A DNA stretch of 55,787 nt. Origin: a virus (Duplodnaviria; Caudoviricetes). The position numbers and the translations under genes were made by a program. The number at the start of each line of letters is the position of its first letter. Position 1 is the stretch's first letter. The notes beneath the pieces are model-generated. The model was not told the DNA's origin. It saw nothing but the letters and a program-made list of their open reading frames with translations, and made no database searches. Location of the stretch: IMG/VR virus record IMGVR_UViG_3300036852_000461, positions 1 through 55,787 of that record. One strand, 5' to 3'. Positions 28,785-50,282 of this stretch are shown here, one piece after another.

Positions 28785-28813
28785 TTGACCGTTCCAGCCA
28801 GCGCTGTTAGCGT
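28785..28813 (+). promoter_or_regulatory. Promoter upstream of capsid
   Basis: TTGACC-17-TAGCGT with TG extension. Confidence 0.7.
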
Positions 28814-28836
28814 CGGCACGTAACGCACGAGCCCGC

Positions 28837-28895
28837 CCGCGGGTGCTGACCCGTGGAGGCGACGTGATCCACGTCGTTTCCTCAGGAGGTCAGCA
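28837..28895 (+). ncRNA. Structured leader motif, copy 1 (capsid)
   Basis: CCGCGGG-TGCTGA-CCCGTGG-AGGCGACG, second hairpin, then AGGAGGTCAGCA. Confidence 0.7.
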
Positions 28896-28898
28896 ACG

Positions 28899-30398
28899 AT
28901 GCGCATCCTCTCCAAGCTCTGGGAGCTGTGGCTGTGGCTCCGACTCCTCACCGGCGCGGCCGTCGCTCCCCCGGCTGGCGGTCTCGCCGCAAGCTTCCGT
29001 CCGATCGGCGGCGGTGAATCCGATGCCGCGATCAAGGAACGCCTCAAGGAACTGAAGGTCGCCGCCAAGACGGCCCTGGACGCAGCCACCGAGGCGGGAC
29101 TCAACGCATCGGCGAAAACGATCGAGGTCGAAGCTCCCGACGGTTCAAAGGTCGCGGCCATGGTCGTCGAGCCCGAGCACAAGGCGGCCTACGACACTGC
29201 GATGGGGCAGTTCAACGAGCTGCAGCCGGAGATCGAGAAGCTCGAGGCACTGCTGAAGGGCCACGAGTGGGGCAACCAGCCCGGCGCGCCGTCGGTCGCG
29301 CTGGACGCAGCCGCCATCGCGGAGATCATGAAGAACGCCGGCGGGCATTCGCGCGAACGCAAGACGCTCGGGCGGATGTTCGTCGAGTCCGAGGAGTACC
29401 AGGCGGCCAAGGCCGCCAACGTTCCGCACATGCAGAAGGCGTTCGAGTTCAAGGGGACGCTTCCCGATCCAATCCTGCGCAAGGACGTGTACTCGACGCT
29501 TCCCGGCGGAGATGCGCCGTGGCAGAGCTTCGGCTCGATCCAGACGGACCCGTTCGTCGAGTCGCCGCACCGCACCCAGCGCATCCGCGATCTGTTCGGC
29601 GTGCGCAATACCAGCTCGCCGCTCCTGCGGTACTTCCGGGTGCTCGGCTACCTGGCCGAGGGCGGGGCGACCAATGCCGCCTCGACGGTCGGCCAGCGCA
29701 ACGAGGCCAACGACGGCTTCCAGAGCAAGCCGCACACCAGCCTCAAGTTCGAGCCCAAGATCGCCAACGCGGCGCGCATCGCGCACTACGAGCTTGCGCA
29801 CCGCGACGCCCTGACCGACGAGCCGCAGCTGCGCGGCATCATCGACTCCGAGCTGCTGTACGGGCTGCAGATCGTCGAGGATGCGCAGATCCTGTACGGC
29901 ACGGGGACGGGCGACGACCTCGAGGGCATCCTCACCGTCGGCGGCGTGCAGGGCTTCGTGCTCGGCACCGACGGTCCGGCACCGTCGACCGACAACATCG
30001 CCGATGCCCTGCGGCGTTCGATGACGCTGGTGACGCTCGCGGAGTTCGAAGCCACGGGCGTCGTGATGCATCCGAGCGACCTCGAGAACCTCGAGCTGTT
30101 GCGCTCGGATGGTGATGAGCGGTTCTACCTGTTCGCCGCCACTATCCAGGCCGGAGGCGAGCCGCGCGTGTGGCGCGTGCCCGTCGTGCAGTCCCAGGCC
30201 ATCGTGGCCGGGACGGCCCTGGTCGGTGCGTTCGGGCTCGGGGCGCAACTGTACGACCTCGAGCAAGCGAACATCCGCATCTCCGACCAGCACGACAAGC
30301 TGTTCGTGGAAAACGGGATCGCCATCCTGGCTGAGGAAAGGCTGCTTGTAGCCACCAAGCGTCCGGAGGCCTTCGTCCTTTGCAGCAACCTCGCGTAG
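28899..30398 (+). CDS. Major capsid protein (HK97 fold) with N-terminal scaffold/delta domain
   Basis: KTLG..FVES, RIRDLF, KP...L.F, IAH, D.PQL..II...L.YGL...ED.QIL.G.G, F..N..AILAEER.....RPEAF. Confidence 0.95.
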   Translation: MRILSKLWELWLWLRLLTGAAVAPPAGGLAASFRPIGGGESDAAIKERLKELKVAAKTALDAATEAGLNASAKTIEVEAPDGSKVAAMVVEPEHKAAYDTAMGQFNELQPEIEKLEALLKGHEWGNQPGAPSVALDAAAIAEIMKNAGGHSRERKTLGRMFVESEEYQAAKAANVPHMQKAFEFKGTLPDPILRKDVYSTLPGGDAPWQSFGSIQTDPFVESPHRTQRIRDLFGVRNTSSPLLRYFRVLGYLAEGGATNAASTVGQRNEANDGFQSKPHTSLKFEPKIANAARIAHYELAHRDALTDEPQLRGIIDSELLYGLQIVEDAQILYGTGTGDDLEGILTVGGVQGFVLGTDGPAPSTDNIADALRRSMTLVTLAEFEATGVVMHPSDLENLELLRSDGDERFYLFAATIQAGGEPRVWRVPVVQSQAIVAGTALVGAFGLGAQLYDLEQANIRISDQHDKLFVENGIAILAEERLLVATKRPEAFVLCSNLA

Positions 30399-30468
30399 TT
30401 ACCTTGCGCGAGTAGCACTGCACCGTTCTACGAGATACACTGGCCCCCTCCAAGTGAGGGGGTCAGTC

Positions 30469-31158
30469 GTGTCCAGGGATAGATCGATGGTTGAGCGAGT
30501 CACCGTTACCTGCGTGAGATGCGGCAAATCGGTGCAACGGTATGCGAGCGACGTCGCTCGTCGGAAGACCCCGCGATCGTTCTGCTCGCATGAGTGCAGG
30601 AACTTGTTGGGCGCCAAACCGCGCCGAGGTGCTGAGGTGACGTGCGCGCTGCCGGGGTGCTCCAACACGTTCTACGTTGGACCGAGCAAGAAGCGGAAGT
30701 TCTGTTCAACGAGGTGCCTCAACGACTCGAACAAACGACCCCGGGACGATCGAACATGCGAGCACTGCGGCAAGGGCTTCGCAATCCTCAAATCGCAGCT
30801 CCGTTGGAACGCCGGGCGGTTCTGCTCATCGAAATGTTCAAGCGCATTCCGCTATGCAGCCACCATCGGGGTGCGTAAGAAGCGCTCCGATGGTTATGTG
30901 GACGTGCGCCAGCCCGACCATCCAGACGCGCAGGCGACGGGTTGGATCTCCGAGCATCGGCTGGTCATGGAGAAGAAGGTCGGGCGACGACTGCTCCCCG
31001 ACGAGACAGTCCATCACATAAACGGTGCGCGTGACGACAACCGGCCCGCGAACCTTGAGCTTTGGGTGAGCAGACATCCTCCCGGTCAGCGTGTCAAAGA
31101 CATCGTCGCCTGGTCGGTCGAGATGCTTTCCCGCTACGCCCCCGAACGCCTAGCCTGA
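30469..31158 (+). CDS. HNH endonuclease with N-terminal Cys-rich (CxxC..FCSxxC) repeats
   Basis: Three CxxC..FCS..C repeats; EHRLVME...GR.L...E.VHHING.RDDNRP.NLELW. Confidence 0.9.
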   Translation: MSRDRSMVERVTVTCVRCGKSVQRYASDVARRKTPRSFCSHECRNLLGAKPRRGAEVTCALPGCSNTFYVGPSKKRKFCSTRCLNDSNKRPRDDRTCEHCGKGFAILKSQLRWNAGRFCSSKCSSAFRYAATIGVRKKRSDGYVDVRQPDHPDAQATGWISEHRLVMEKKVGRRLLPDETVHHINGARDDNRPANLELWVSRHPPGQRVKDIVAWSVEMLSRYAPERLA

Positions 31159-31175
31159 CTCCGCGCACCTCACGC

Positions 31176-31222
31176 GCGACGAGCCCCCGACGGACCTCTT
31201 CATCCCGCCGGGGGCTCGTCGC
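31176..31222 (+). terminator. Intrinsic terminator-like hairpin
   Basis: 14-bp perfect stem GCGACGAGCCCCCG/CGGGGGCTCGTCGC followed by AGCTTCTT. Confidence 0.7.
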
Positions 31223-31265
31223 AGCTTCTTAACGTCTCGTCGCAGCGCGCTGCTATCCTCGCGGC

Positions 31266-31568
31266 GTGAGTGAAGCGCACGAGCGGCCGCGGCCCCTGCT
31301 GTTCTCGGGCTGGAAGGATGACCCGCGCAAGCCGGGGCCACCGATGGTCACCTTGACCGAGGACGTCTGGGAGATGGTTCGTCACATCAACGCCCCACGA
31401 CAGCACAGACGCCTGGTTGGGAGAGCGGGCTCGAAGATCCCGATGAGCGAAGCCGTCCGCCTCGGTTTGGTCGAACCGCAGGCCGAGCAGGCCGCGATAG
31501 AGACACAGGACATCAAGAACATTGAAACCCAAGATGTTCGCCCTCCCCGAAGGGGGCGACGCCGATGA
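31266..31568 (+). CDS. Small capsid-associated hypothetical protein
   Basis: LV..AG..IP..EA.RLGLV motif, IETQD twice; TGcTATCCT just upstream of the GTG. Confidence 0.65.
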   Translation: MSEAHERPRPLLFSGWKDDPRKPGPPMVTLTEDVWEMVRHINAPRQHRRLVGRAGSKIPMSEAVRLGLVEPQAEQAAIETQDIKNIETQDVRPPRRGRRR

Positions 31569-32071
31569 GCAGGATACGTTCGGTGTCCGCCTATCCAGAT
31601 TTTATGCAGCGGGCAATCGCTCAGCTCGCTAGTAAATCGATCGTGGTCGGAGACTGTCGATTCTGGACCGGCGCACTGAATGAACACGGTTATGGGGTTA
31701 TGTCTGGGCCAGGGGGACGAGATCGAGCGCGCCCTCTCTTGGTTCATCGAGTTGCCTACGAGATTGCGCACGGCGGAATCGATGAGGAACAGATGGTCCT
31801 GCATTCGTGCGACCAGCGGCAGTGCTTTGAGGTATCACACCTGAGACAAGGGGTAGCGGCAGACAACACCCACGACATGGTCGTACGCGGCCGAGGCCGC
31901 GGCATGAATTCCGGCAAGACTCATTGCAAACGTGGACACCTGCTAGCGCTCGACAACGTTCACATCGATAAGAACGGTCGTCGCCATTGCCGCGAGTGCG
32001 GACGAATTCGTGATCACGTGCGTGTTCGTGAAAGCGGATGGGCGCGTCAGCGCGCTCGTCAGGGATCATGA
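31565..32071 (+). CDS. HNH endonuclease
   Basis: C.FWTG...GYG..VHRVAY..VLHSCD...C....HL; KTHCKRGH..CREC. Confidence 0.85.
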   Translation: MSRIRSVSAYPDFMQRAIAQLASKSIVVGDCRFWTGALNEHGYGVMSGPGGRDRARPLLVHRVAYEIAHGGIDEEQMVLHSCDQRQCFEVSHLRQGVAADNTHDMVVRGRGRGMNSGKTHCKRGHLLALDNVHIDKNGRRHCRECGRIRDHVRVRESGWARQRARQGS

Positions 32072-32111
32072 AGGGTGCTGTCCCGCATCGAGTCGGTCTC
32101 GGAGGGAACGG

Positions 32112-32693
32112 ATGAGCGTGACGGTCGTCACACCCTCCATCCCGTCGCGGCGCGAGATGCTGCTTGAGGCCATGGCCTCGGTCGACGAGCAGACGCTTGC
32201 GCCCGCAGCTCACATCGTCGTGATCGATCACGCCGGGATTGGCGGCGAAACGACCCGCAATCAGGGTCTGGACGCGGTGCGCACGGAATGGGTCGCCTTC
32301 CTCGATGATGACGACAGGTTCCTGCCGCAGCATCTCGAACGTCTGGTCGCTCATCAGCAGGCCACCGGAGCCGACCTCGTCTACCCCTGGTTCGAGATGG
32401 ACGGGATCACAGACGAGCTAGGCTGGTTCGGCTGGTTCGGCAAGGAGTTCGACGGCGACGTCCTGCGCACGTCCAACTACATCCCGAGCACGACCCTGGT
32501 CCGGACCAGCCTCGCGCGCGAGGTCGACGGCTTTCCGACGCTCGAATCGAAGGCGTGGCCGTTCGACCACTCGGCCGACTGGGGCTTCCTGCTCCGCCTG
32601 CTCGATGCCGGTGCGATCTTCTCCCACCTACCCGAGAAGACTTGGATCTGGCGGCGCTGGCGCGGCAACCTCGGCGGAAGGAACTGGCGGTGA
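32112..32693 (+). CDS. Glycosyltransferase family 2
   Basis: VTVVTP..R..L.EA..SV..QT, RN.GL, WVAFLDDDD, DW.FLLR. Confidence 0.9.
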   Translation: MSVTVVTPSIPSRREMLLEAMASVDEQTLAPAAHIVVIDHAGIGGETTRNQGLDAVRTEWVAFLDDDDRFLPQHLERLVAHQQATGADLVYPWFEMDGITDELGWFGWFGKEFDGDVLRTSNYIPSTTLVRTSLAREVDGFPTLESKAWPFDHSADWGFLLRLLDAGAIFSHLPEKTWIWRRWRGNLGGRNWR

Positions 32694-33499
32694 CGGTTCT
32701 CGTCGCCACAACAATCGCCGGCTGGTGCTGCGATGGCATGAAGGAGTTGTCGTGGCTTCGGTCGGCCGAGTTGATGCGCGAGCACTCGCCGGTCGACCTG
32801 GAGTTCTTCTGCGCCATTCAGCACGACGATGCCCATCCCGGCATCCCCTCGGAGTGTGCATCCCTCGTTGGGCGACTCAGCGATGTGGTTCCGAGCGTCG
32901 TGGATCGTGAGCGCCTGTCATGGTGGCTGTTTTCGATCGACTCCGAGGCGTGGAGGCCGACGACTCGCGACCGTCTCATCGGCATCACCACCGGTCGCAA
33001 TCTCATCCGTGAGTACGCGCTGCGCGACACCGACGCCACGCACGTCCTGTTCCTCGATGCCGATGTCGAACCCGACCCGATGTGCATCCCGAAGCTGCTC
33101 GAACTCGAGCATCCCGTCGTCGGTGGTGACGTGCCGTCGTATTGCTTGGCAGGTCCACGTGTGCTCTGTCGCAACGGCCACACACGCCAGAAGTTGCCGC
33201 GAGGGAAGGCAGCGTACGTCGATGGGGAGGAGACCGAGTACTGCTCATATGTTCGGAGCTACGGGGTCGTGTGTGATCCCCTCGCCGTTCACGTCCAGGA
33301 ACACTGGAACACCGCAGGTTTCCTCCTCGTCCGACGCGATGTCCTCCGTCAGGTCGCATGGCGATGGGACCCCGACGAGACGATCACCGACGACCCGTGC
33401 TTCGCGCAGGACGTCGAGCGCGCAGGGTTCGGCAAGACGTGGGTGCGCAAGGATTGCATCGGCAAACACGCGCGGCTCATCCCCGTCGAAGCGCGATGA
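32690..33499 (+). CDS. GT-A fold glycosyltransferase
   Basis: GRN.IRE.A....THVLFLDAD, AGFLLVRRDV, DDPCF. Confidence 0.8.
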   Translation: MTVLVATTIAGWCCDGMKELSWLRSAELMREHSPVDLEFFCAIQHDDAHPGIPSECASLVGRLSDVVPSVVDRERLSWWLFSIDSEAWRPTTRDRLIGITTGRNLIREYALRDTDATHVLFLDADVEPDPMCIPKLLELEHPVVGGDVPSYCLAGPRVLCRNGHTRQKLPRGKAAYVDGEETEYCSYVRSYGVVCDPLAVHVQEHWNTAGFLLVRRDVLRQVAWRWDPDETITDDPCFAQDVERAGFGKTWVRKDCIGKHARLIPVEAR

Positions 33500-34194
33500 T
33501 CTACGCGGTCATTCCCGTCAAGGATGAAGCCGCACTCGCGTGCAACGTGGTCGCGCTCGCCATCCGTGAACGTGATGTCTACGTGCGGGTCTGTGACAAC
33601 GACTCGACCGAATCCACCCGCAGCGCTCTGAAAGAGTTCGGCAGCGAGCGGTGCGAGGTCATCGACGCGGCAGGCAAGGGTCTGTACCAGATGTGGGACG
33701 AAGCATGGTCGGCTGCCCACCAGCAGAGCGCCGGCGAGCCATACGAGATCGCCTTCCTCAATTCGGACATCGACTTCCTGCCCTGCACGCTGGCCGCGAT
33801 GCGCTACCTGCTCCGGCGCGAGGGCTTCGATGCGGTCTGTCCCAACTACCAGCGGCGCGTCAGCGAAGGCACCGGCGTCTTTCCCGAGCACACCGTGGCT
33901 GTCGGCGTCCACACGGTGCATGGTTCCTACCGTCACGGGGGTCTCGCTGGCTGGTGCTTCATGGTGCGCGGCGAACTGCGCGATCGAGGAATCAAGGTCG
34001 ATACGTCCTTCCGCTGGTGGGCGGGCGACGATGATCTCTTCTTCCAGATCGAGGAGGCAGGCGGGAAGCTCGGCATCATCGAGGCGCTTCCGCTCGACCA
34101 CATCGGCGAAGCGACAGCGCGGCATTACCCCTGGACCGAAACTGCGAAGGCTCGCGACATGGCGCGCCTGCGTACCAAGTGGGGCACGCGGTGA
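33496..34194 (+). CDS. Glycosyltransferase family 2
   Basis: AVIPVK, VCDNDS, IAFLNSD, GWCFM, F.WW.GDDDL, H.G. Confidence 0.85.
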   Translation: MIYAVIPVKDEAALACNVVALAIRERDVYVRVCDNDSTESTRSALKEFGSERCEVIDAAGKGLYQMWDEAWSAAHQQSAGEPYEIAFLNSDIDFLPCTLAAMRYLLRREGFDAVCPNYQRRVSEGTGVFPEHTVAVGVHTVHGSYRHGGLAGWCFMVRGELRDRGIKVDTSFRWWAGDDDLFFQIEEAGGKLGIIEALPLDHIGEATARHYPWTETAKARDMARLRTKWGTR

Positions 34195-35342
34195 GGATCC
34201 TGTTCGTCTCGTCCGATCAGGGCGGCTGCCGCTATTACCGCTGTCTGCTCCCCGCCCAGGAGCTCAGTCGTCAAGGCGGCCACGAGGTGCTCGTCGCCGG
34301 CTCCCTCGCCCAACTTCGGTCCGGCGAGATCGTCGCGCCGTCGGCAGACGACCCCCGAACCTTCACACGCGGGTTCGAACTCGTCGTCCTGCAACGCTGG
34401 ATGCATCAGGATGCAGCCGAGGTCACACGCATGGCGCGAGCGTACGGTCAGATCGTCATCAACGACGTGGACGACTGGTTCTTCGGCATTCCGACCTCGA
34501 ATGCAGCCTTCCGCGGGTCGCACAAGTCGAACGACCCGACGTGGAACATCGAGCATTACCGACGCGTCCTCGCAGCGTCGTCCGCACTCACCGTCTCCAC
34601 GCCCTATCTCGCTGAGCGCCTGACGTCCCTGGGACGTCCGGTCTACACCATCCGCAACCACATCGACATCGAGCGCTGGACGCCGGCGACGGTCGCTCCG
34701 AGGTCACTCGTCCTGGGATGGGTCGGACACATGGCGCATCGCGCGGCAGGAGACTTGGGGCAACTCGCCGGGGTGCTCGGCCCGTGGATGAGCAGATATC
34801 AGCATGCACGGTTCCTGCACGCCGGATCAGATGGTGAAGCGGATCACGAAGCGATGCTGAAGCTGCTCGCGGTCACACCCGATCGACTGATGACCCGCGG
34901 GCTTCGCAACATCCGGTTTCTGCCCCAACTCATTCACGGTATGGACATCGGCCTGGCACCACTCGAGGAATGCCCCTTCAACTTCGCCAAATCAAACGTG
35001 AAGGTGCTCGAGTACGGGGCAGCGGGCGTACCCGCGATCGCGTCGGATCGGCCGGAGTATCGGCAGTTCGGTGCCGTGGCGCTCTGCAAGACCGCCTCCG
35101 ACTGGACGGCTGCGCTGGACCGCCTGGCCGATCCCGGCGAGCGTCTAGCGGCTGCTGTGGCCGCCCGCGCGCGCGCCAGGGAGTTCGACATCCGCGCCGG
35201 CTGGTCACAGTGGGAGTCGGTCTACGAGCGTGTGATCGCCGATGCAAAGGGCGAGAGCCTCGGTTCACCATCACGCCCATCCCTGATCGTCCCCGCCTCA
35301 TCGTTCCGGCGTCGCAAGCCCAAGAGGCGCGCGAGGACCTGA
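34191..35342 (+). CDS. GT-B (family 4-like) glycosyltransferase
   Basis: GC.YYR..LP, LQR, DVDD, VSTPYL, GWVG, DIGLAPL...FN..KS.VK.LEYGAAG.P.IAS. Confidence 0.88.
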   Translation: MRILFVSSDQGGCRYYRCLLPAQELSRQGGHEVLVAGSLAQLRSGEIVAPSADDPRTFTRGFELVVLQRWMHQDAAEVTRMARAYGQIVINDVDDWFFGIPTSNAAFRGSHKSNDPTWNIEHYRRVLAASSALTVSTPYLAERLTSLGRPVYTIRNHIDIERWTPATVAPRSLVLGWVGHMAHRAAGDLGQLAGVLGPWMSRYQHARFLHAGSDGEADHEAMLKLLAVTPDRLMTRGLRNIRFLPQLIHGMDIGLAPLEECPFNFAKSNVKVLEYGAAGVPAIASDRPEYRQFGAVALCKTASDWTAALDRLADPGERLAAAVAARARAREFDIRAGWSQWESVYERVIADAKGESLGSPSRPSLIVPASSFRRRKPKRRART

Positions 35343-35346
35343 GTCG

Positions 35347-35375
35347 TTGACCGGGTCGGCATGCGCTCCTACGCT
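35347..35375 (+). promoter_or_regulatory. Promoter upstream of the 993-aa gene
   Basis: TTGACC-17-TACGCT. Confidence 0.72.
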
Positions 35376-35394
35376 TGGACCGTCTGACGCGAGG

Positions 35395-35457
35395 CCCCGG
35401 GTGCTGACCGCGGGGAAGCGACGGGCGACGACCTGGTCGTCTGCGAAAGGTCAGCGC
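35395..35457 (+). ncRNA. Structured leader motif, copy 2
   Basis: CCCCGGG-TGCTGA-CCGCGGGG-AAGCGACG...GAAAGGTCAGCGC. Confidence 0.7.
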
Positions 35458-35492
35458 GTGTTGCCTTCCCCCGTCCGTCTGGTCGCTATCTG

Positions 35493-38474
35493 ATGCGCGC
35501 CAAGTTCCGTGACGCTGTCCTGGATCGCCGCGGGCATGGCATCGAGGCGACGATCGAGGTGCGCGAGCCCGGAACGACAACGCCCGTCGCGGCTGCGCTG
35601 TACGACGAGGCTGGCAACGTCCTCGCCAATCCGATCACCGCGAATACCGCCGGCGAGTTCGAGTTCTATATGGACGACGCCCAGCGGGTCGACCTCTTCG
35701 TCTCGAAGGACACCTTCACCGCAGAGACGCAACAGGTGGACGTTCTTGGCCCCGACCCCGCGCCCGTTCAGTCCGTCTTCGGCCGAACGGGCGACGTCGT
35801 TCCCCAACTGGCCGACTACAACGGCTTCTTCCTCACTCCGGCAGAAGGCGATGCCGCCTACGATCCCTTCGGTGCGGCTGCGTCAGCACTGTCGACCGCC
35901 GAGTCCTACATCGACACATCAGTTGCGAACTACGTCCCGCTCTCGCAGAAGGGCGCCGCGAGCGGAGTCGCAACACTCGACTCGGGCTCGAAGATCCCCA
36001 TCACGCAGCTTCCCGCCCTCGCCATCACCAGTACGTCGGTCGTCGCGTCGCAGGCCGCGATGCTTGCCCTGACGGCCCAGGAGGGTGACGTCGCGATCCG
36101 CAGCGACGAGAAGAAGACGTACATCCTCTCGACGAGCGACCCGACGCAGCTCGCGAACTGGCTGTGGTTGCAGACGCCCGACGACGCGGTGTCGAGCTTC
36201 AACGGCCGCGTCGGCGCCGTGATGCCTCTCCAAGCCGACTATGACGGGTTTTTCTTGACTCCGGCCGAGGGTGATGCTGCTTATCTCGCCAAGGGTGCGT
36301 TGACGGACGGTTCCGTGCTCTTCGCGGCTAGCGGTCAGGTGCAGCAGAATAACGCGCATCTGTTCTGGGACGACGCGAAGAATCGTCTTGGGATCGGGAC
36401 AGCCGCGCCCCTCGTACGACTGCACGTATCGGATGGAGCTTCCGTCGCATCGGCGCTTCTCACGACGGACGCCATCTCGCTCACCGACCAGTCCGGCAAT
36501 CTCACAACGGCATCGCTCATCTCCGTGACGGATGTGGCCGGGACGCGCGGCGTCGTCAAGGGCGTCCGGGCGCGAGGAACGCTCTCCGCCCCAACCGTCC
36601 CGAATACCGACGACGAGGTGTTCGCTTTCCTGGGCTCCATCTACGACGGAGCCACGACGCAAGGTACGGCTGGCGTGTTCTTCCGCGTGGACGGGGCCGT
36701 TTCGGCGGGCGTGGCTCCCCAACGTATCTCGTTCGTCACGAGCGCGACGACAGCCGCCGCGCGCACCGAGAAGGTCACGATCAAGTCCGACGGCAAGGTC
36801 GGCATCGGGATCACCGAACCGACCTCCATGCTGCACGTCGCCGACTCGTCGAGTTCGTCTCCTCGCGGGATCACCAGCGGGCAGTACAACACGGGCCCGG
36901 ACGGCGCGCGCCTGCACACGCGGAAGGCACGAGGGACCTATACGACACCTCTGAGCGTTGCGGCGGGAGACACACTCGGTCGCTGGGTCGCCGACGGATA
37001 CGACGGCACGAACTACCTCGATATGGGTGCCATCGCCTTCGAGTCAGAAGGGACGGTCGCCTCGACACGCATCCCGACGCGCCTCGTGTTCCTCACGGCT
37101 ACCAACGCGGCGCCGTCCGTTCTCACGGAAGCCATGCGGATCACTTCCGACCAGTGGGTTGGTATCGGGACGACGGCCCCGCTCCGGCGGTTGGCCGTTG
37201 CCGATGCGAGCGCGAACACGATGGTCGTCCTGCGTTCCGTGGCGAGCGGCGCGGCCACCAACGGGCTGACGATCGGCCGCATCTACTTCGGAACGAACAG
37301 CACCAGCGCTCCGGGAGCGGTACTGGAGACGGCGAGCATCCTCGGCGTCGCGACCGAAGCGTGGACCGTCGGTACGGCGCAAGGATCAGGCGTCCGCATC
37401 CAAGGAACCCAGAACGGCACCACATCGACCATCAGCGTCCTCGAGAGCAGTGGGCGTCAATACCTGTGGATCGACCCAGACGCGAATAGCACGAGTTCTG
37501 CGCAGGGAATCGCATTCGGAACCTCACGAGACACGCAGATATACCGATCGGGGGTCGGCATCGTTCTGCTCAACAACAGCCTCGGGATCGGCCAAAGTCG
37601 ACAGCGGCTCGCCGCCCTGAGCGTGCTGCCTCTCGCTACCCCCAACGGCGGTTCGACCGCGCTGGCTTCCGGTGGCGTCATCACCGCCCAGACCGTGACG
37701 TACGGGACCACGGCCCAGACGGGCGACGTCTCCGCCTTCCTCATCGAGCAGCAGACCTACGCTTCCACCCCCGCCTCAACCGTCATCCCCGATCTCTCCG
37801 GACTGCGCATCAAGGGTCCTGTCACTTCCGGCGCTAACGCTTCTGCCACGAGGACGCAGGCGTTGCTCATCGAGACGGGGGCGGATGCCAACAACGGCGT
37901 GGTGATCAGGCAGAACTCGGGCACGCAGTCCGCTCCATTGATCTTGTTCCAGAATTCCTCGGCCGGGACCATCGCGACCATCGGTGGAGACGGGAAGTTC
38001 ACCAGCAAAGATGGAACCGCAACGACTCCGGGCCACGCCTTCATCAGCGAGACCACCCTCGGCACCTACCGCATCTCCGCTGGCATCCTCGGATTCACCG
38101 CCAACGCCGAACTCGCCCGCATGTCCGCCTCTCTGTTTCAGCTCGCCGCAGGCGTCATGCTCACGCTCAATCAGGACACCTCGGCTGCCCAGACCATCGT
38201 GGCGGGCACAACGAACGGTCTCAAGATCGGAACGGCAACAAACCAGAAGCTCGGCTTCTTCAACGCAGCGCCTGTTATTCAGCCAGTGCGCGCCGCGACA
38301 CTGACCAACAACGTGACGGTCGGGGGAACCGACGACAGGATCGACGACATCACGGCTGCATCCGTGGACACGACGGCCGCCAAGCTGACCGACACGCGCA
38401 ATGCGATCTACCAGTTGGCGCGAGCTATCCGCGCTCATGATGTTGGACTTCGCGCACTTGGGCTGCTGAGCTGA
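35493..38474 (+). CDS. Fibre-like virion protein (993 aa)
   Basis: Ser/Thr/Gly-rich beta repeats, (L/V)GIG...P three times, duplicated V.S..GR.G.V...ADY.GFFLTPAEGDAAY, C-terminal LRALGLL. Confidence 0.75.
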   Translation: MRAKFRDAVLDRRGHGIEATIEVREPGTTTPVAAALYDEAGNVLANPITANTAGEFEFYMDDAQRVDLFVSKDTFTAETQQVDVLGPDPAPVQSVFGRTGDVVPQLADYNGFFLTPAEGDAAYDPFGAAASALSTAESYIDTSVANYVPLSQKGAASGVATLDSGSKIPITQLPALAITSTSVVASQAAMLALTAQEGDVAIRSDEKKTYILSTSDPTQLANWLWLQTPDDAVSSFNGRVGAVMPLQADYDGFFLTPAEGDAAYLAKGALTDGSVLFAASGQVQQNNAHLFWDDAKNRLGIGTAAPLVRLHVSDGASVASALLTTDAISLTDQSGNLTTASLISVTDVAGTRGVVKGVRARGTLSAPTVPNTDDEVFAFLGSIYDGATTQGTAGVFFRVDGAVSAGVAPQRISFVTSATTAAARTEKVTIKSDGKVGIGITEPTSMLHVADSSSSSPRGITSGQYNTGPDGARLHTRKARGTYTTPLSVAAGDTLGRWVADGYDGTNYLDMGAIAFESEGTVASTRIPTRLVFLTATNAAPSVLTEAMRITSDQWVGIGTTAPLRRLAVADASANTMVVLRSVASGAATNGLTIGRIYFGTNSTSAPGAVLETASILGVATEAWTVGTAQGSGVRIQGTQNGTTSTISVLESSGRQYLWIDPDANSTSSAQGIAFGTSRDTQIYRSGVGIVLLNNSLGIGQSRQRLAALSVLPLATPNGGSTALASGGVITAQTVTYGTTAQTGDVSAFLIEQQTYASTPASTVIPDLSGLRIKGPVTSGANASATRTQALLIETGADANNGVVIRQNSGTQSAPLILFQNSSAGTIATIGGDGKFTSKDGTATTPGHAFISETTLGTYRISAGILGFTANAELARMSASLFQLAAGVMLTLNQDTSAAQTIVAGTTNGLKIGTATNQKLGFFNAAPVIQPVRAATLTNNVTVGGTDDRIDDITAASVDTTAAKLTDTRNAIYQLARAIRAHDVGLRALGLLS

Positions 38475-39337: not shown

Positions 39338-39344
39338 CCAAGCG

Positions 39345-41406: not shown

Positions 41407-41418
41407 GCGAATGCGATG

Positions 41419-41460
41419 GAGTGACAGAATCTTGTCACTCACACGGAAACGTCGTACGCT
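41419..41460 (+). promoter_or_regulatory. Tail promoter with palindrome over the -35
   Basis: TTGTCA(41432)-17-TACGCT(41455); GAGTGACA-N6-TGTCACTC at 41419-41440. Confidence 0.7.
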
Positions 41461-41514
41461 TCACCCGTCCGGGGCTGAGCAGAACCGGATGTGAGCACGA
41501 CCCCGAAGCATGGT

Positions 41515-41581
41515 CCCCGGGTGCTGACCCGGTGGAAGCGAAGGGCGCCAGTCCAACGCATCCGCTAGCAGGAGGTCAGCA
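41515..41581 (+). ncRNA. Structured leader motif, copy 3 (major tail)
   Basis: CCCCGGG-TGCTGA-CCCGGTGG-AAGCGAAG...AGGAGGTCAGCA. Confidence 0.7.
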
Positions 41582-41583
41582 AG

Positions 41584-42165
41584 GTGGTCAACGCACAAGA
41601 GACCGTCGTCTTCGACATCTGCGACGGCAAGGTCTACGAGATGTACGCCGATACGGCTGGAGCTTCGGCAGGCCCGTCATACGGAGAGGCCATCGATCTG
41701 CCTGGCATCGGGGCTCTCTCGGGCTTCGACCCGCAGATCGTCTCGGCCGAGCTGAAGGGCGATTGCCGTGTCATCGCCCGTCAGGGGCGCATCGACAGCG
41801 TGAACGCGTCGATCACCTACGGCAAGATTGCGATCCCCGTCCTCACGGCCCTGCACGACATGCAAGCGTTCTCGAGCGGGCTGATCGAGGGCGCGCGCAT
41901 CAAGGGTGGTGCGGAGATCAAGTACTTCAAGTTCACGGGCACCATCACCGGCACCGATGCTGGCGTGGACGACGTACAGGTCATCTTCTACAAGGCCCAG
42001 CTCACCTCCGAAACGCTGTTCGATCAGGCGAGCGATCAGTTCGGCCAGCCGAAGTTCGACATGAGCGCGATCGGCATCGATAGCGGCGCGGCCGAAGGCG
42101 TGGGGCCCTATCCCGGGCTCGAGGTCGCAACGCTCGCGGACATCCTCATCACCTCGGAGGCCTAG
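41584..42165 (+). CDS. Major tail (tube) protein
   Basis: Synteny; ELKGD, YFK..G, V.FYKA; strong SD. Confidence 0.8.
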   Translation: MVNAQETVVFDICDGKVYEMYADTAGASAGPSYGEAIDLPGIGALSGFDPQIVSAELKGDCRVIARQGRIDSVNASITYGKIAIPVLTALHDMQAFSSGLIEGARIKGGAEIKYFKFTGTITGTDAGVDDVQVIFYKAQLTSETLFDQASDQFGQPKFDMSAIGIDSGAAEGVGPYPGLEVATLADILITSEA

Positions 42166-42167
42166 CC

Positions 42168-42698
42168 GTGGCTGGAGCCGAGGCGGTAGAAGATCGCTTT
42201 CCGGCGAGCGCGTATCTGCGTGGCCGGGAGGTGGCCGTGCGTTTGGTGCCATCGGGAGGCGGCGACCCCGAGCCCGTCTGGTTCAGGTTCAGCCAGAACC
42301 ACGTGGCAGCCATCGAGGAGGAGTTCGGCGGCGTCATCGCCTTCGATGAATCCTTCGTAGTGCGGGGCGCGACCACGATCCGGAAGGTTCTCGCGATCGT
42401 TCTCGGCGAGCCGCTCGATACCGAGGGTCTTGCCCGTATCGGCGATCGGATGTTGGCCGAGGAGTTCCCGGCCTATCTGGCTGCGATCGAGTCGGCGTGG
42501 CTGCTTGCGCACGGGTCCTCGGAGGAAGAGGCGGGAAAAGCGTGGGCGGGCCGGTTGGAGCTCGCGGCCAACGGGACGGCCAGCGTCGCCGCGGCGTTCC
42601 AGAAAATCCTGGATCGGAGCGTAACCGCTTCGACTGGGAACAACGGCTCGCGCGCTGGGAGGCGACAGGGCACGGCACCGAAGAGTTCTGGCGGCTGA
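42168..42698 (+). CDS. Tail assembly chaperone (G)
   Basis: Between tail tube and tape measure; IEEEFG. Confidence 0.75.
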   Translation: MAGAEAVEDRFPASAYLRGREVAVRLVPSGGGDPEPVWFRFSQNHVAAIEEEFGGVIAFDESFVVRGATTIRKVLAIVLGEPLDTEGLARIGDRMLAEEFPAYLAAIESAWLLAHGSSEEEAGKAWAGRLELAANGTASVAAAFQKILDRSVTASTGNNGSRAGRRQGTAPKSSGG

Positions 42699-42871
42699 CC
42701 CCGGCGCAGGCCGACGTGATCATGCGCCTGCATGAGGGACGCCCCAGAAGATCGGAGCCGGTCGATCCGAGCCGACCGATGCTGCCTGCGGGCGCGCGCC
42801 GTGGTTCGCCGGCAGAGTTCGTAGCCCGAGCCAGGGCCGCCGGTCTGCGCGTGATCGAGGGCGGAGGCTGA
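42533..42871 (+). CDS. Tail assembly chaperone -1 frameshift extension (T)
   Basis: Slippery G GGA AAA at 42533-42539 in frame; the -1 frame encodes EEFWRLTPAQ. Confidence 0.7.
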   Translation, partial: GKSVGGPVGARGQRDGQRRRGVPENPGSERNRFDWEQRLARWEATGHGTEEFWRLTPAQADVIMRLHEGRPRRSEPVDPSRPMLPAGARRGSPAEFVARARAAGLRVIEGGG

Positions 42872-42872
42872 C

Positions 42873-45791: not shown

Positions 45792-46834
45792 AGCTGCCGG
45801 CCTATGCATGCCTGGACGGCACCGAGATCATGAACGAGGTCCGCACCCAGACCTATCTGAATGCCGGCCTGGTCAAGACCGTGCGGGGCTTCGGGCGAGT
45901 GTGTCCGGCCCTGAACGACGGATTCGTGTCCCCGACCGACGATCCGGCGCCCTGGTACGACTCGGACCATCCTGAGTCGGCTGGGTTCATGGGCATCCTC
46001 GCCGACGGTGTGGAATTGTCGCCGGTCCTATCGGCTTCGAGCACGCCTCGTCTGGACGAGGGTGCCGTGATCGGAGCAGAAGTACATGGTGCACGGGGCG
46101 TGCTCGTGCAGGGCTGGATGGTCGCCACCGATCAGCGCGCGATGTATTGGGGCGAGCGCTGGCTGAATGAGGCACTCCGTGGGACGAACTGCGGCTGCGG
46201 TGGCAGCGATCTCGAGCTTCTCTCGTCGTGCTCGCTTGGCGGCGCACCCTACGACGACGATTTCCGCTTGCTGCCGGGAGCGAAGCTCATCTCGCCTCCC
46301 ATCCCTTCGCCCATAGAGATCCTCTCGGACTGCAAGACGCAGAACGTCCAGTTCCAGATGCAGGCTCCTTCGCCGTGGCTGTTCTCGCTGCCGACGGTGG
46401 CTGTCGACGACGTGACGGTCGTGGATGGGTCGGGCGATGGCGTGGTGTTCGCCACCGAGGACTGGCGCAGCGAGGCGCTGGTCATCACGGTCTCGACCGA
46501 TGCGGGTTTCGATGACGGGGCGATGATCACCATCACCGAGTCGCTGGATGGCGCGACGTGTCCCGAAGATCGCGTGGCCGCCTCGGCCATCTACGAGCTT
46601 CTCGACCTGGCACCTGAATCCTCACTTGAGATCGACGCGATGCGCACGGCGGTGACCTACGCCAATCCCACGAGCCATCTCAACGTCCCAGGCTTCGACA
46701 AGCTCTCACGAGAGACGCGCGTGCCTTTCTGCTGGCCGACGATCCCGCGCTGCAACACCGTTTGCGTCTATCTCACCAACGAGACCGGCGATGACGTGGT
46801 GTGGAGGGTCGAGCGCCGCAAGCGGGAGCTATAA
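45788..46834 (+). CDS. Distal tail/baseplate-like protein
   Basis: Follows the tape measure; EI.N..RT..Y, D.APWYD...PES..F.G. Confidence 0.7.
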   Translation: MKLPAYACLDGTEIMNEVRTQTYLNAGLVKTVRGFGRVCPALNDGFVSPTDDPAPWYDSDHPESAGFMGILADGVELSPVLSASSTPRLDEGAVIGAEVHGARGVLVQGWMVATDQRAMYWGERWLNEALRGTNCGCGGSDLELLSSCSLGGAPYDDDFRLLPGAKLISPPIPSPIEILSDCKTQNVQFQMQAPSPWLFSLPTVAVDDVTVVDGSGDGVVFATEDWRSEALVITVSTDAGFDDGAMITITESLDGATCPEDRVAASAIYELLDLAPESSLEIDAMRTAVTYANPTSHLNVPGFDKLSRETRVPFCWPTIPRCNTVCVYLTNETGDDVVWRVERRKREL

Positions 46835-47887
46835 ATGTCGTACTCAGCCGGCGGCACCCTCGGTTGCGGCTCCTGGAGGGCGCGCCTGCTTGAGCGCGGC
46901 GGAAGTCGGACGATCCTCGAATTGCCTGCGACCTCGGCTCGGCACACGCGGGCGCGGTCAACGTTCTCGACAGGGTCGTGCTTCGTGGCCCTGTCCGAGG
47001 TGCCGGACTACTGCTACGGGCCACTGGCAAAGATCAGACCGTGGGAGCACGAGCTTGAGCTGGTGCGGGACGGTGAGACGAAGTGGCTCGGCCCGATCTC
47101 GGAGGGTCTGGGATTCTCACGCGCCGGCGTGGCCATCCGTGCGCGGGACTGCTCGCACTGGGGCGAGCGACGCGTGCATCCGGTCGACCGCAACATCACC
47201 GACGATCTCGCCCGCATCTTCGAGCTGTTCGTGGCCGACGCCATGCTCGAGGACCCCTCACCAGGTCTGAGCGTGGATCTCGTCGAACTCGGCACAATCG
47301 GTAACCGGACGGTGCTGCGCAGCGAGGCCAAGTACGTGGCCGATTCGCTTCGCGAACTCGCCGACAGCGGCCTCTATTACACGACGCTGCTGCGGCAGAT
47401 CCGCGTGCGCCCGGACGGGGTAGGCGAGACGGTCGGGACCCTGCTCGATGCCCATGTGCAGATCGAGTCCGAAGCGACCCTGGACGGACTGTCGTTTGCC
47501 TCGGAGTTCATCGTGGTCGGTGAGCAGCCTGCGGACGCCACGAGCAGCACGCCAATCGTAGGACGCGCCGGCGGTTTCGACGAGCGCACGGGTCTGGTGC
47601 AGATCACCGATCGCCAGACGGGCTCGAACAACACCCTCGATGCCACCCATGCCGCGCAGGCGGGTCTGGCCGAGGCGAGCACCGAGCCGGTGGCCCTACC
47701 GGTGAAGCTGCAGCAGACGACCCCTCTCGATTACGACGATCTCGTACCCGGCAACCACGTCCCGGTATTGCTGACGCTCGGTGTCTATGTCCTGAACGAA
47801 ACTCTGACCATCGACTCGATGTCGATGGATGCCGCACTGAGCGAGCAGATCACGCTGAACCTCGTGCGCAAGGTAGAGGCGGCCTGA
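46835..47887 (+). CDS. Minor tail (hub-like) protein
   Basis: LGCG, PW.HEL...RDGE..W.GPI, DLVPG. Confidence 0.7.
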   Translation: MSYSAGGTLGCGSWRARLLERGGSRTILELPATSARHTRARSTFSTGSCFVALSEVPDYCYGPLAKIRPWEHELELVRDGETKWLGPISEGLGFSRAGVAIRARDCSHWGERRVHPVDRNITDDLARIFELFVADAMLEDPSPGLSVDLVELGTIGNRTVLRSEAKYVADSLRELADSGLYYTTLLRQIRVRPDGVGETVGTLLDAHVQIESEATLDGLSFASEFIVVGEQPADATSSTPIVGRAGGFDERTGLVQITDRQTGSNNTLDATHAAQAGLAEASTEPVALPVKLQQTTPLDYDDLVPGNHVPVLLTLGVYVLNETLTIDSMSMDAALSEQITLNLVRKVEAA

Positions 47888-48354
47888 TGCCCCGTCGCCC
47901 GCGAGCGCTGCCCGATCGTGTCGCACATCTGGAGCAGCTGTTTCGCAACCTGCGCACGGGTGCTGGTGTACCCGGTGAGACGGGAGCGACCGGATCCCCA
48001 GGCGCAGACGGTGTGGGCAAGGCGGCCTACGACTGGACGAACAATGCCACTCTCGTTCGCGTCGGCTTCGGGCAGCGCAAGTATGCCGATCGCGACGGAA
48101 CGATCCTCTACGTGCGAGCCGAGCGCAGCGCAGGCGATGGCAGCGGCGCGGCAACCTTCGATGTCACGAAGAACGGGGTGTCGATCTTCCCGTCCGCGAC
48201 CAAGCCGACCATCCCCGCATCCTCATTCCTCGGTACGGAGCGCGTGCCCGATGACGTCGACTTCGTCAAGGGCGATTACTTCCAGATTCACACTGAGACG
48301 ACGGGCAACGGCACCGGACCGGTGGTCGTGACCATATTTTTCCAGGAGGTCTAG
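47887..48354 (+). CDS. Minor tail protein
   Basis: Short Gly-X-Y stretch; FDV.KNG.SIF...KPTI. Confidence 0.7.
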   Translation: MPRRPRALPDRVAHLEQLFRNLRTGAGVPGETGATGSPGADGVGKAAYDWTNNATLVRVGFGQRKYADRDGTILYVRAERSAGDGSGAATFDVTKNGVSIFPSATKPTIPASSFLGTERVPDDVDFVKGDYFQIHTETTGNGTGPVVVTIFFQEV

Positions 48355-48360
48355 ATGGCG

Positions 48361-48813
48361 TTATCGAAGACCGCGCGCGCGACGCCGTCGCTGAGCGAGT
48401 TTGGTCCTCTCGCGATGGCAGATCGAACAGACTCGGTGATTCGGGCGCGAGGGGAAGAATGTGTCATATGGATGCCCCTTCGGGCAATGCGTCTTGCGTG
48501 TTTCCTTGCTCCGTCGCTTCCGCGCGGAGTCGCGCATGTTGTCGCTCCGCGTTCCGAGGAACAGGTGCGCCGGGTTGCAGCACGCCCGGTTGTCGCATCG
48601 GTGACAGACGTGCAGGCCGTTTGGGATCGGACCATAGACCAATTCGTACGAGACGCGATGCGCGCCTACGGCTCCGCCGTATTTCCCCCCTCTCCCAATA
48701 GCTCCATAACCATTCGCGTACCTTGCGCCAGTCCACTCCCAGCATTGCGTCCAATGGCGCTTATCGACCTTGGGCCAGAACCGTTCCTCGATAGGTCGAG
48801 CGGGACAGGACAT
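48361..48813 (-). CDS. HNH endonuclease (antisense)
   Basis: [50 protein letters not shown]. Confidence 0.92.
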
Positions 48814-48844
48814 CGGCAGTTGTTATCACGAGGAGGTAAACGCC

Positions 48845-49831
48845 ATTAGCTTCGATTCAGGAGTGATCACCAGCGCCACCCCGCACGCGGCGCTCGCGAC
48901 GAAGATCAAGGCGCTTTTCGGTGGGTCGGGCGTCGCCAACTGGTCGTTCGTCGAGAACATCCCGGCCGGGACGGGGGCAGGTCAGTCGGGCTCGGCGTCC
49001 TACTCGATCGACGTCTACAAGTGCGCGGGAAGCGGGACCGACGCGAACGACGCGGCGACGGACTGGTACGTAGCGTGGCGGCTGCCGGTGACGGACGGTG
49101 CTGTGAGTTCCAATTTCAATGTGTTCGAAGACTACGAGGGTGGTACGAACAAGCGGTTCAAGCGTCCAGTTGCAGGGCCCGCTGTTCAAGCCCCAACGGG
49201 TACGGGGTTCTGGCGTTCTGACACTTATGCCGCCGCTGCAAGCGTGGTCGGTGTCCAGCAGGAGACCATTTTCACGCTCAACACGACTGGCTTCTCGTAT
49301 TGGATCAAACTGACAAAGAATGGCATCTGGGTAACGTGCCAAGTCGGTAGCACTCTCGGAACCCACATCGCTCTGCTCGGTGACACGATGGTCGCCTCAG
49401 GTGTCGCGACGGACTCGTGTCCACTCTTTGCGCACGGAGCCGGAGGCGGTTCGGGTATCGAAGCGTCCAGAGAACCTGGTGTGACTGACGGTACGAAAAC
49501 AAAATGGAACTATGGAGAATGTGCTCCTTGGACTCTGTTAGCAGGAAGCAACGCACCAAACAACAACGATCTCTTCCAAGGGAATAAGGTTGCCCTTTCA
49601 CGCATCTGCGTCCTGAGGACAGGGGGAGCAGGAGTGATCAACCTCATTGGTGCCTTCCGGGCATTGCTGAAACCAGAATTGATCCTCTGTTTCCAGACGG
49701 GTGGGACGGTGAACATCGGCGACACGATAGTCATCAACGGCGTCACTTACGTTGTGATGTGGCCCGGTACGGGAACGTTCGGAGCCTTCATAGTCACGAA
49801 CGCCTTCGTGTTGGTGACCCCTCAAACCTGA
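48845..49831 (+). CDS. Minor tail/receptor-binding-like protein
   Basis: Gly/Ser/Thr-rich frame ending GDTI.ING.TY.V. Start uncertain: ATT 48845 after GAGGAGG, or GTG 48863. Confidence 0.7.
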   Translation: MSFDSGVITSATPHAALATKIKALFGGSGVANWSFVENIPAGTGAGQSGSASYSIDVYKCAGSGTDANDAATDWYVAWRLPVTDGAVSSNFNVFEDYEGGTNKRFKRPVAGPAVQAPTGTGFWRSDTYAAAASVVGVQQETIFTLNTTGFSYWIKLTKNGIWVTCQVGSTLGTHIALLGDTMVASGVATDSCPLFAHGAGGGSGIEASREPGVTDGTKTKWNYGECAPWTLLAGSNAPNNNDLFQGNKVALSRICVLRTGGAGVINLIGAFRALLKPELILCFQTGGTVNIGDTIVINGVTYVVMWPGTGTFGAFIVTNAFVLVTPQT

Positions 49832-50139
49832 TGGCCGTCCTCACGCCGGGCGAGAGCGTCTTCGTGGGTGACTACGCCGATGCGGGCGATGCGACCGTGC
49901 AGGCGGGAAGCGCCAGCTCGGGCTGGCAGGTCTGGGACAGCTACACCTTCGTCCCGTCCGCGACGTTCGCACTCACACCAGGCGAGGCCGTCTTCGTCGG
50001 GGACTACGCGGACAAGGACGACGAGACCGTCAAGGCTCACGAGGCCGACTCAGGATGGAAGATCTGGGGCGACTACGTCTTCATGGGCGAGTTCCCGACC
50101 AACAAGCCGTGTCCGGACGTGTGGGCGGTCATCGGATGA
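49831..50139 (+). CDS. Small protein of two tandem ~45-aa repeats
   Basis: LTPGE.VFVGDYAD..D.TV.A....SGW..W..Y.F twice. Confidence 0.75.
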   Translation: MAVLTPGESVFVGDYADAGDATVQAGSASSGWQVWDSYTFVPSATFALTPGEAVFVGDYADKDDETVKAHEADSGWKIWGDYVFMGEFPTNKPCPDVWAVIG

Positions 50140-50146
50140 AGGACGG

Positions 50147-50175
50147 TTGAGTCCAGCACCCGTCTGACGTAGCCT
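50147..50175 (+). promoter_or_regulatory. Promoter upstream of leader motif copy 4
   Basis: TTGAGT-17-TAGCCT. Confidence 0.6.
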
Positions 50176-50192
50176 GACCTGGTAGCCACGGC

Positions 50193-50258
50193 CCGTGGGT
50201 GCTGACCTGCGGAGGCGACGAGGCCGTTTCGTCGTGTTCCGAAGGAGGACCCACCCGG
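50193..50258 (+). ncRNA. Structured leader motif, copy 4
   Basis: CCGTGGG-TGCTGA-CCTGCGG-AGGCGACG, second hairpin, then AAGGAGG; lacks GGTCAGC. Confidence 0.65.
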
Positions 50259-50282
50259 ATGCCCTGTGGATGCGTGGAACCA

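Follow-up and report, generated by a model that had tools for sequence, protein, structure and literature searches.

A hairpin leader motif before virion genes of actinophages, repeated four times in one virus record

The T7 gene 10 leader and the 5′ hairpin of E. coli ompA are 5′-terminal stabilising stem-loops of highly expressed mRNAs, while phage Mu mom/Com and the rpoS leader are translational operators in which a leader hairpin is set against pairing of the ribosome-binding site (RBS). Little is understood of how late genes are regulated in actinobacterial phages, for which few cis-acting RNA elements are on record. Here we describe a short hairpin, P1, that occurs four times in the IMG/VR record IMGVR_UViG_3300036852_000461, the whole of which (55,787 nt) is called the window below. 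With its GC-rich stem and its tip G-UGCUGA-C, P1 is this phage's version of a hairpin found ahead of the major capsid gene in a large group of actinophages. We tentatively favor the view that it is an RNA element in the 5′ untranslated region of highly expressed virion genes, which would act on translation initiation through pairing of its tip with the RBS. Drawn from sequence comparison, this view has, in our judgment, somewhat less than an even chance of being right.

Like the T7 gene 10 and ompA leaders, the element combines a GC stem near the mRNA 5′ end with an unstructured spacer and a strong Shine–Dalgarno (SD) sequence, about 50–60 nt before the start of a gene for an abundant protein. 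Unlike them, its tip is conserved across distant phages and is complementary to the RBS in GC-rich lineages, and the window hairpin does not lie at the predicted 5′ end. As in Mu mom/Com and rpoS, the leader would have a choice of two folds, only one of them leaving the ribosome landing zone accessible, and a trans-acting factor could shift the balance between them. It differs from these operators in that the occluding strand is the tip of a hairpin conserved throughout a family.

Four promoter-hairpin cassettes

The pattern GGTGCTGACC-N4-8-RGCGA has exactly four matches in the window, all on the + strand (28842, 35400, 41520 and 50198), against 0.01 expected, and none of 100 shuffles reached four. 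The four copies listed in the initial annotation, with stems starting at 28837, 35395, 41515 and 50193, are therefore real repeats. Each has the form stem-TGCTGA-stem-ARGCGAMG, with arms that pair through G-U pairs and single bulges in all four copies, and all four lie between open reading frames (ORFs), as had been claimed. The sequence TTGNNN-N17-TANNNT occurs at only four sites on the + strand of the window (28785, 35347, 41432 and 50147), each upstream of one hairpin. Because all four of these promoter-like sites precede hairpins, we regard site and hairpin as one cassette. This upholds the promoter assignment of the initial annotation as a sequence pattern. In three copies 17–23 nt separate the end of the −10 element from the stem; in copy 3 the gap is 54 nt. 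A second hairpin is predicted after the ARGCGAMG block in all four leaders, with the block forming its 5′ side and the SD following, in agreement with the earlier description; the block itself is lineage-specific. When the window was scanned with R2, a family model whose seed included the window copies, only the four copies scored 17.9–22.8 bits, and the next match reached 13.0. A fifth exact GGTGCTGACC, at 17313–17322 inside a 482-aa ORF (16242–17690), has no flanking stem and is probably due to chance. The parts of the cassettes and the genes that follow the first three are as follows.

28785–28813, + strand: promoter-like site 1, TTGACC-17-TAGCGT, beginning 13 nt past the stop codon of the 861-aa head gene
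28837–28856, + strand: hairpin P1 copy 1, CCGCGGG/TGCTGA/CCCGTGG, 17.9 bits with R2
28855–28881, + strand: block AGGCGACG (28857–28864) and second hairpin P2 of copy 1, predicted from folds
28884–28901, + strand: SD AGGAGG of copy 1, tip partner GGTCAGCA (28888–28895), an 8-nt complement to TGCTGACC, and capsid ATG 28899
28899–30398, + strand: major capsid protein gene, 499 aa, phrog_10 (E 4e-50), with PF05065 homologues
35347–35375, + strand: promoter-like site 2, TTGACC-17-TACGCT, a pattern match
35395–35415, + strand: hairpin P1 copy 2, CCCCGGG/TGCTGA/CC(G)CGGGG, 22.2 bits with R2
35416–35444, + strand: block AAGCGACG and second hairpin of copy 2, predicted from a fold
35449–35495, + strand: tip partner GGTCAGC of copy 2 (35449–35455), a 7-nt complement, with an upstream ORF and ATG 35493
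35493–38474, + strand: gene for a 993-aa virion protein, tail- or fibre-like, with PHROG tail, tail-fibre and virion structural matches
41432–41460, + strand: promoter-like site 3, TTGTCA-17-TACGCT, a pattern match
41515–41535, + strand: hairpin P1 copy 3, CCCCGGG/TGCTGA/CCCGG(T)GG, 19.4 bits with R2
41536–41559, + strand: block AAGCGAAG and second hairpin of copy 3, predicted from a fold
41570–41586, + strand: SD AGGAGG of copy 3, tip partner GGTCAGCA (41574–41581), an 8-nt complement, and GTG 41584 of the major tail gene
41584–42165, + strand: major tail protein gene, 193 aa, phrog_4971
50147–50175, + strand: promoter-like site 4, TTGAGT-17-TAGCCT, a pattern match
50193–50212, + strand: hairpin P1 copy 4, CCGTGGG/TGCTGA/CCTGCGG, 22.8 bits with R2
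50213–50235, + strand: block AGGCGACG and second hairpin of copy 4, predicted from a fold
50244–50261, + strand: SD GGAGGA of copy 4, ACCCACCC (50249–50256), complementary to the 5′ arm of P1 and not to the loop, and ATG 50259

The genes named in the initial annotation behind the first three copies (capsid, 993-aa protein and major tail) stand, although a Pfam search with the 993-aa protein gave no match and its PHROG matches are to tail or fibre proteins only. The "last tail gene" proposed behind copy 4 does not: the leader ATG 50259 opens a 226-aa ORF with no family match.

The arrangement of these cassettes bears on one of the mechanisms suggested at the outset, processive antitermination, in which the nascent hairpin would modify RNA polymerase for terminator read-through in the virion operons. 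Like lambda nut boxB and HK022 put, P1 is a small promoter-proximal hairpin with a constant loop in phage transcripts; it has a GC stem, lies on the transcribed strand, and occurs once per promoter. However, no boxA-like sequence was found in any of the four leaders (the consensus YGCTCTTWA, with at most one mismatch, has 12 matches against 13.6 expected, none of them in leaders), and the loop, UGCUGA or GCUG closed by U-A, is not the GNRA-like pentaloop of boxB. Terminator-like sites do not exceed chance (13 versus 9.6, and 5 versus 7.3), with only three on the + strand. Unlike nut and put sites, the element is found ahead of the capsid gene instead of where an operon begins, as a single copy in genomes of 145–158 kb, and its predicted pairing with the RBS points to translation. 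We thus consider antitermination very improbable. The hairpins do not resemble intrinsic terminators, since none of the four was called as such and they are followed by ARGCGAMG and not by T runs. ANTAR targets consist of two tandem hairpins with hexaloops in which the first base is A and the fourth is G; P1 differs, with U at both positions of its hexaloop, and the loops of the second hairpins measure 3–6 nt.

A capsid-leader family with covarying stems

The hairpin is not the private four-copy element that it first seemed to be; it belongs to a widespread family of capsid leaders, usually with one copy per genome. As the family criterion we used a stem on the coding strand with two G/C pairs closing a UGCUNA loop, 40–90 nt ahead of the start of a virion gene, and by this criterion (models R1 and R2) the four window copies are members. 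The capsid-relative set comprised 80 IMG/VR loci, kept from 576 confirmed ones and fetched by capsid alignment, with 41–47% identity to the window capsid and a G+C content of 0.41–0.68. In all 80 a hairpin precedes the capsid start, with two G/C pairs enclosing the loop TGCT(T/G/C)A. These hairpins represent 54 distinct sequences, with the loop 40–76 nt before the start codon; the exact loop TGCTGA is found in five of the 80. A model built from ten hairpins gave weaker matches at the equivalent place in about 30 further loci, and in a second set of relatives the core motif was present at 50 of 77 loci. The motif is absent from loci L404–L408.

Among cultured phages, GGTGCTGACC occurs about 65–80 nt before the capsid ATG in the Gordonia phages Chidiebere, FlyingTortilla, GMA6 and DalanDe, whose stems differ yet pair (CGTGG/CCACG in GMA6, CATGG/CCATG in DalanDe). 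Streptomyces phage Gilgamesh carries the variant loop UGCUGG; a further model match in this phage, at 89569, lies inside a coding sequence and was taken as chance. Two near-complete genomes, of 145 and 158 kb, yield a strong model match at the capsid site and nowhere else, and a single copy ahead of the capsid gene is the norm in the family. The 26-kb fragment G003 (68% G+C) carries the hairpin twice, ahead of its capsid gene and ahead of a gene for a homologue of the window's major tail protein. Upstream of both G003 leaders (L224 9750–9800 and 19398–19445) there is a near-identical block of about 40 nt that ends in TATACT and lacks a TTGACA-like −35; this block may be a phage-specific promoter or activator site.

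The invariance of the loop claimed in the initial annotation holds for the window copies, whose arms change and still pair, but not across the family, where UGCUUA, UGCUCA, UGCUGG, UGAUGA and UGUUGA also occur. In the AT-richer majority the core is GGCTGGG-TGCTTA-CCT(A/G)AGCC. WhiB genes are encoded in three AT-richer genomes, G001 (108590–108808 and 16670–16861), G002 (71920–72138 and 8008–8199) and G004 (35877–36095), and in each of the three one WhiB gene follows the capsid leader at a distance of about 8 kb, in the same orientation. Therefore, and because of their cultured relatives, we regard the AT-richer phages as actinophages; the window holds no WhiB gene.

The AT-richer leaders bear on a rival explanation, that P1 is a passive 5′-proximal stabilizer of highly expressed mRNAs against 5′-end-dependent decay, with no specific factor and no switch. 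Read by eye, the hairpin directly follows a −10-like TATAAC or TGATAAC in these phages, which would place it at, or close to, the 5′ end of the mRNA. A spacer of 71% A+C and 5% G comes next and then the SD, and the hairpin keeps a fairly uniform distance from the start codon. Among virion proteins, those of the capsid and the major tail are the most abundant, and their genes carry the hairpin both in the window and in G003; on this ground we propose a high-expression cassette for virion proteins, a role that a stabilizer would also fit. Conversely, a stabilizer needs a stem but no particular tip sequence, whereas all 59 aligned hairpins keep G-UGCU-A-C on stems that vary. Furthermore, the window stems lie 17–54 nt past the −10-like sites and would thus not be 5′-terminal. 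We consider the stabilizer unlikely, though a serious rival.

In all family members the hairpin lies between the protease and capsid genes. This position would also suit an RNA processing site, where the hairpin marks or bounds an endonuclease cut that frees stable capsid and tail mRNAs from long late transcripts, with the conserved tip as a possible nuclease determinant. Processing is not needed to create a 5′ end in the window, as every copy has its own promoter-like site, and it leaves the partner sequence at the RBS unexplained. It too is a serious rival, and an improbable one.

The stem was examined in an ungapped alignment of 59 distinct hairpins, with pairing scored allowing a one-base 3′ bulge. 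G13, U14, G15, C16, U17, A19 and C20 are constant in all 59. Paired cells amount to 81.4% versus 73.9% after shuffling, and the covariation score to 0.239 versus 0.129; none of 500 shuffles reached either value, in a control that ignores relatedness and is weakened by the many members that are close kin. Slid registers, a control free of this weakness, give at most 50.7% pairing. Pair 10–23 occurs as UA, UG, CG, AU and GC, pair 11–22 as GU, GC and UA, and pair 12–21 as GC in 57 sequences and CG in two. For 56 of 62 sequences, the minimum free energy (MFE) structure that RNAfold predicts over 32 nt contains the hairpin, with a U-A pair drawn closing a GCUN tetraloop. Because the arms vary yet pair around a constant asymmetric tip, the opposite of the pattern of a dimeric DNA operator, we conclude that the element appears to work as RNA, as the initial annotation had argued from the window alone. 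A fixed DNA promoter element is disfavored as well, since the spacing from the −10 ranges from 17 to 54 nt within the window.

A DNA operator could nevertheless be imagined as an asymmetric site of about 10 bp, resembling the stoperators of mycobacteriophage L5, for a repressor or late regulator, with a second, inverted copy at the RBS. The virion-gene promoters of a temperate phage would need silencing in the lysogen; the constant core, besides being asymmetric, never changes orientation; and concordant changes of core and partner, such as those in L403 and L478 described below, would follow a change in protein specificity. However, arms that covary to keep pairing, with G-U pairs and bulges, are meaningless for duplex DNA. 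The core is common to phages with 41–47% capsid identity and 41–68% G+C, while immunity operators usually diverge fast, and the partner overlaps the core in different registers between lineages. There are also only four copies, not dozens. The stoperators of mycobacteriophage L5 occur in many copies genome-wide and are read as duplex DNA, and the start-associated sequences (SAS/ESAS) of cluster K occur in many copies adjacent to start codons. The present element resembles both as a short, conserved, asymmetric intergenic actinophage sequence, in one orientation and near gene starts. It differs from them in having a covarying stem around the core and only one to four copies, mainly before the capsid gene; the window holds the four structured copies and one stemless 10-mer in an ORF. 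We regard the operator as the least probable of these alternatives.

Rfam 15 gave no match at gathering score over the whole window, and when leader 1 and the L173 leader were scanned permissively, no score rose above chance level (7.9–14.7 bits against gathering scores of 40–90). Mu-gpT-DE RNA (RF03012), a structured RNA motif tied, like P1, to a phage major capsid gene but possibly located downstream of it, was the only match named for the L173 leader (11.5 bits against a gathering score of 49), and it fell in the spacer, not in the hairpin. Full-text literature searches brought up no account of the motif, and a description in a subscription journal or supplement is possible. On the strength of these searches, which agree with the earlier statement that no described family was recognized, we file the motif as undescribed, of a known general kind, a cis-acting leader RNA.

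Three broader scans looked for the motif by pattern. In IMG/VR, GGGTGCTGACC-N4-8-RGCGA matched 117 loci once each; these were taken as chance because by eye nearly all are coding-like and stemless. The tip followed by GGTCAGCA at 30–60 nt was found at 31 IMG/VR loci, with a real leader only in the G003 contig. A metagenome scan for the tip plus GAGG-N0-1-TCAGCA, biased by design towards the pairing, matched at least 118 loci; among the matches listed there were 76 distinct sequences, of which none had more than five ungapped stem pairs.

Complementarity between the tip and the start region

In copies 1 and 3 the SD is followed by GGTCAGCA, the reverse complement of TGCTGACC; the counterpart in copy 2 is GGTCAGC. 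We compared the 12-nt tip with positions −24 to +18 around the start codon in 11 GC-rich leaders and recorded the longest exact complement. In window copies 1 to 4 it measures 8, 7, 8 and 5 nt; in L224a and L224b, 9 and 6 nt; in GMA6, DalanDe, Chidiebere and Gilgamesh, 7 nt each; and in L403, 8 nt. Complements of at least 7 nt are thus present in nine of the 11 leaders and of at least 6 nt in ten, whereas among 88 ORF-internal control windows seven reach 6 nt and two reach 7 nt. Two further 7-nt complements, after the start codon, occur in L458 and L437.

In Gilgamesh and L403 the partner is found 5′ of the SD; in the window and L224a it covers the 3′ end of the SD and the spacer; in L224b it abuts the AUG; and in the Gordonia phages it occupies +5 to +11. 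Across lineages its position ranges from −23 to +5, and all these positions are within the footprint of an initiating ribosome. Since the position differs between lineages, selection for pairing, and not for one shared sequence, is suggested. Loop and partner also change together: L403 has UGAUGA with CAUCACCG, L478 has UGUUGA with GUCAAC directly after the SD, and Gilgamesh has UGCUGG with CCAGCAC. A stabilizer does not predict this complementarity with matching changes in the GC-rich lineages. In folds of full leaders, the long-range helix is the MFE structure in window copies 1 and 3, L224a and L224b, and forcing P1 costs 0.6–6.5 kcal/mol.

We propose that each window cassette, a paralogous unit of host-type promoter-like site, P1, ARGCGAMG block with second hairpin, and SD, would yield a leader with two folds, as would the leaders of other GC-rich lineages. 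In the open fold P1 would be formed and the RBS free; in the closed fold the tip would be paired with the RBS region. Such pairing could set or gate translation initiation, and hence the fate of the mRNA, and the effect may be activation or repression. The post-transcriptional late-gene gate suggested in the initial annotation fits this complementarity with the SD and start region, if transcription does begin at the promoter-like sites and the timing is late. The near-constant tip would be read by a putative factor, of host or phage, that chooses between the folds; we infer this factor because the tip is also conserved in AT-richer phages that lack a partner.

Several observations weigh against this proposal. 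In the AT-richer majority, complementarity is unenriched and mostly 3–5 nt long, like the controls, as the stabilizer would have it, and no conserved tip partner was found within 2 kb downstream; pairing therefore cannot explain the conservation of the tip there. The Gilgamesh case is weak, as both control windows with complements of at least 7 nt come from this phage, at 7 and 8 nt. In copy 4 the tip complement is no longer than 5 nt, and the MFE structure instead pairs GUGGGU of the P1 5′ arm with ACCCAC. A single DNA-binding protein reading both sites would also yield concordant changes of tip and partner. Promoter-like sites 1–4 are pattern matches only, not called by an E. coli-type consensus scanner. 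The UGCUNA hairpin is missing at 27 of the 77 second-set loci, and the motif is absent at the capsid genes of Cantare, OnionKnight, Melville, Abidatro and Nicky22. Finally, no candidate tip-binding factor was identified.

A bolder version of the proposal, possible but rather doubtful, is that the tip G-UGCUNA-C is the docking site of a conserved actinobacterial or phage RNA-binding factor that licenses translation of virion mRNAs. In GC-rich phages an unbound tip would close the RBS, so that host-type promoters could fire at any time while capsid and tail proteins were made only with the factor. If true, this would be a previously undescribed post-transcriptional control of late genes common to a large actinophage clade. 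Four other ideas, namely tRNA anticodon-loop mimicry, 16S rRNA complementarity, a Chi-like site and a DNA hairpin promoter, were dropped as unsupported.

The element is short, recognizable and present in GMA6, DalanDe, Chidiebere and Gilgamesh, cultured phages whose hosts are laboratory strains, which makes loop, partner and compensatory mutants directly testable. Should a factor read the tip, a post-transcriptional layer of virion gene control would be revealed, together with a compact expression part for actinobacterial engineering. If the hairpin is a stabilizer only, it would still be a useful annotation mark for capsid gene starts and transcription units.

Copies 2 and 4, gene content and neighboring features

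Behind copy 2, the start codon close to the SD is GTG 35458, which opens an upstream ORF of 11 codons. Its stop codon, TGA 35491–35493, overlaps ATG 35493 of the 993-aa gene (TGATG), and this ATG has no SD directly before it; this suggests that the two are translationally coupled. Behind copy 4, the 226-aa ORF is overlapped antisense by an endonuclease ORF, and a second ORF follows.

50283–50954, − strand: HNH_3 endonuclease ORF (PF13392, E 1.7e-8; coding-type GC3), between leader 4 and the 221-aa ORF
50948–51613, + strand: 221-aa ORF with no Pfam or PHROG match

About 31 nt around the leader-4 ATG (50249–50279) recur at 50938–50968, before the 221-aa ORF. They comprise about 10 nt upstream and the first seven codons (MPCGCVE), with synonymous differences. 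From this repeat, the 221-aa ORF is likely to be the original target gene of leader 4, and the arrangement looks like a homing-endonuclease insertion that split the leader from its target. Five HNH endonuclease ORFs occur in this 56-kb record (2510–3232, 9758–10444, 14000–14791, 30454–31158 on the + strand and 50283–50954 on the − strand). The ORF at 30454–31158 lies directly 3′ of the capsid gene, and the two that adjoin leaders 1 and 4 show no mutual similarity.

The record has an estimated completeness of 76% and a G+C content of 64.6%, and almost all of its genes are on the + strand. They include an exonuclease, a RusA-like resolvase, DNA methyltransferases, a Mom-like protein, a replication initiator and a tape measure protein, besides the following.

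5180–6271: Gp3-like recombination directionality factor (PF18897)
21574–22989: large terminase
23092–25416: portal
before the capsid gene: 861-aa head protein, one segment of which is protease-like
51991–53274: endolysin, downstream of leader 4
54642–55760, − strand: integrase (phrog_95)

Since it encodes an integrase and a Gp3-like recombination directionality factor, the window phage is, judging from gene content, temperate. Neither its attachment site nor its host was identified, and no tRNA genes were found in the window. Ahead of the large terminase gene, a 166-aa protein is encoded that matches a sigma-factor PHROG weakly (E 5.4e-7) and helix-turn-helix Pfam families below threshold; its position suggests a small terminase, and for this reason it was not counted as a regulator.

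No near-identical DNA was found among cultured phages, and a single-protein search of IMG/VR gave no close capsid relatives. The nearest capsid homologues, P0002 (74% identity) and P0003 (61%), are on short Logan contigs only. The nearest cultured capsid relatives, the Gordonia phages Chidiebere and GMA6 and the Brevibacterium phage Cantare, are about 41% identical. A capsid-alignment scan of genome contigs yielded no prophage relatives, only two distant loci, in Pleomorphomonas and Winogradskyella.

A DNA modification cluster at 10985–13738 contains two DNA methyltransferase matches and the Mom-like protein, and a DUF5131 protein is encoded at 8013–8858. Two glycosyltransferase genes (32010–32693 and 34179–35342) lie between the head genes and the 993-aa virion gene, which makes glycosylation of virion proteins possible. 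Among the second-set loci lacking the hairpin, nine that were sampled (L410, L418, L423, L429, L440, L459, L460, L473 and L483) share another leader, GACTGGTG...TTGGGTCGCCTGTCATTA, after a TAGCATAAT-like −10 and about 100 nt before the capsid start; it may be a second capsid-leader motif.

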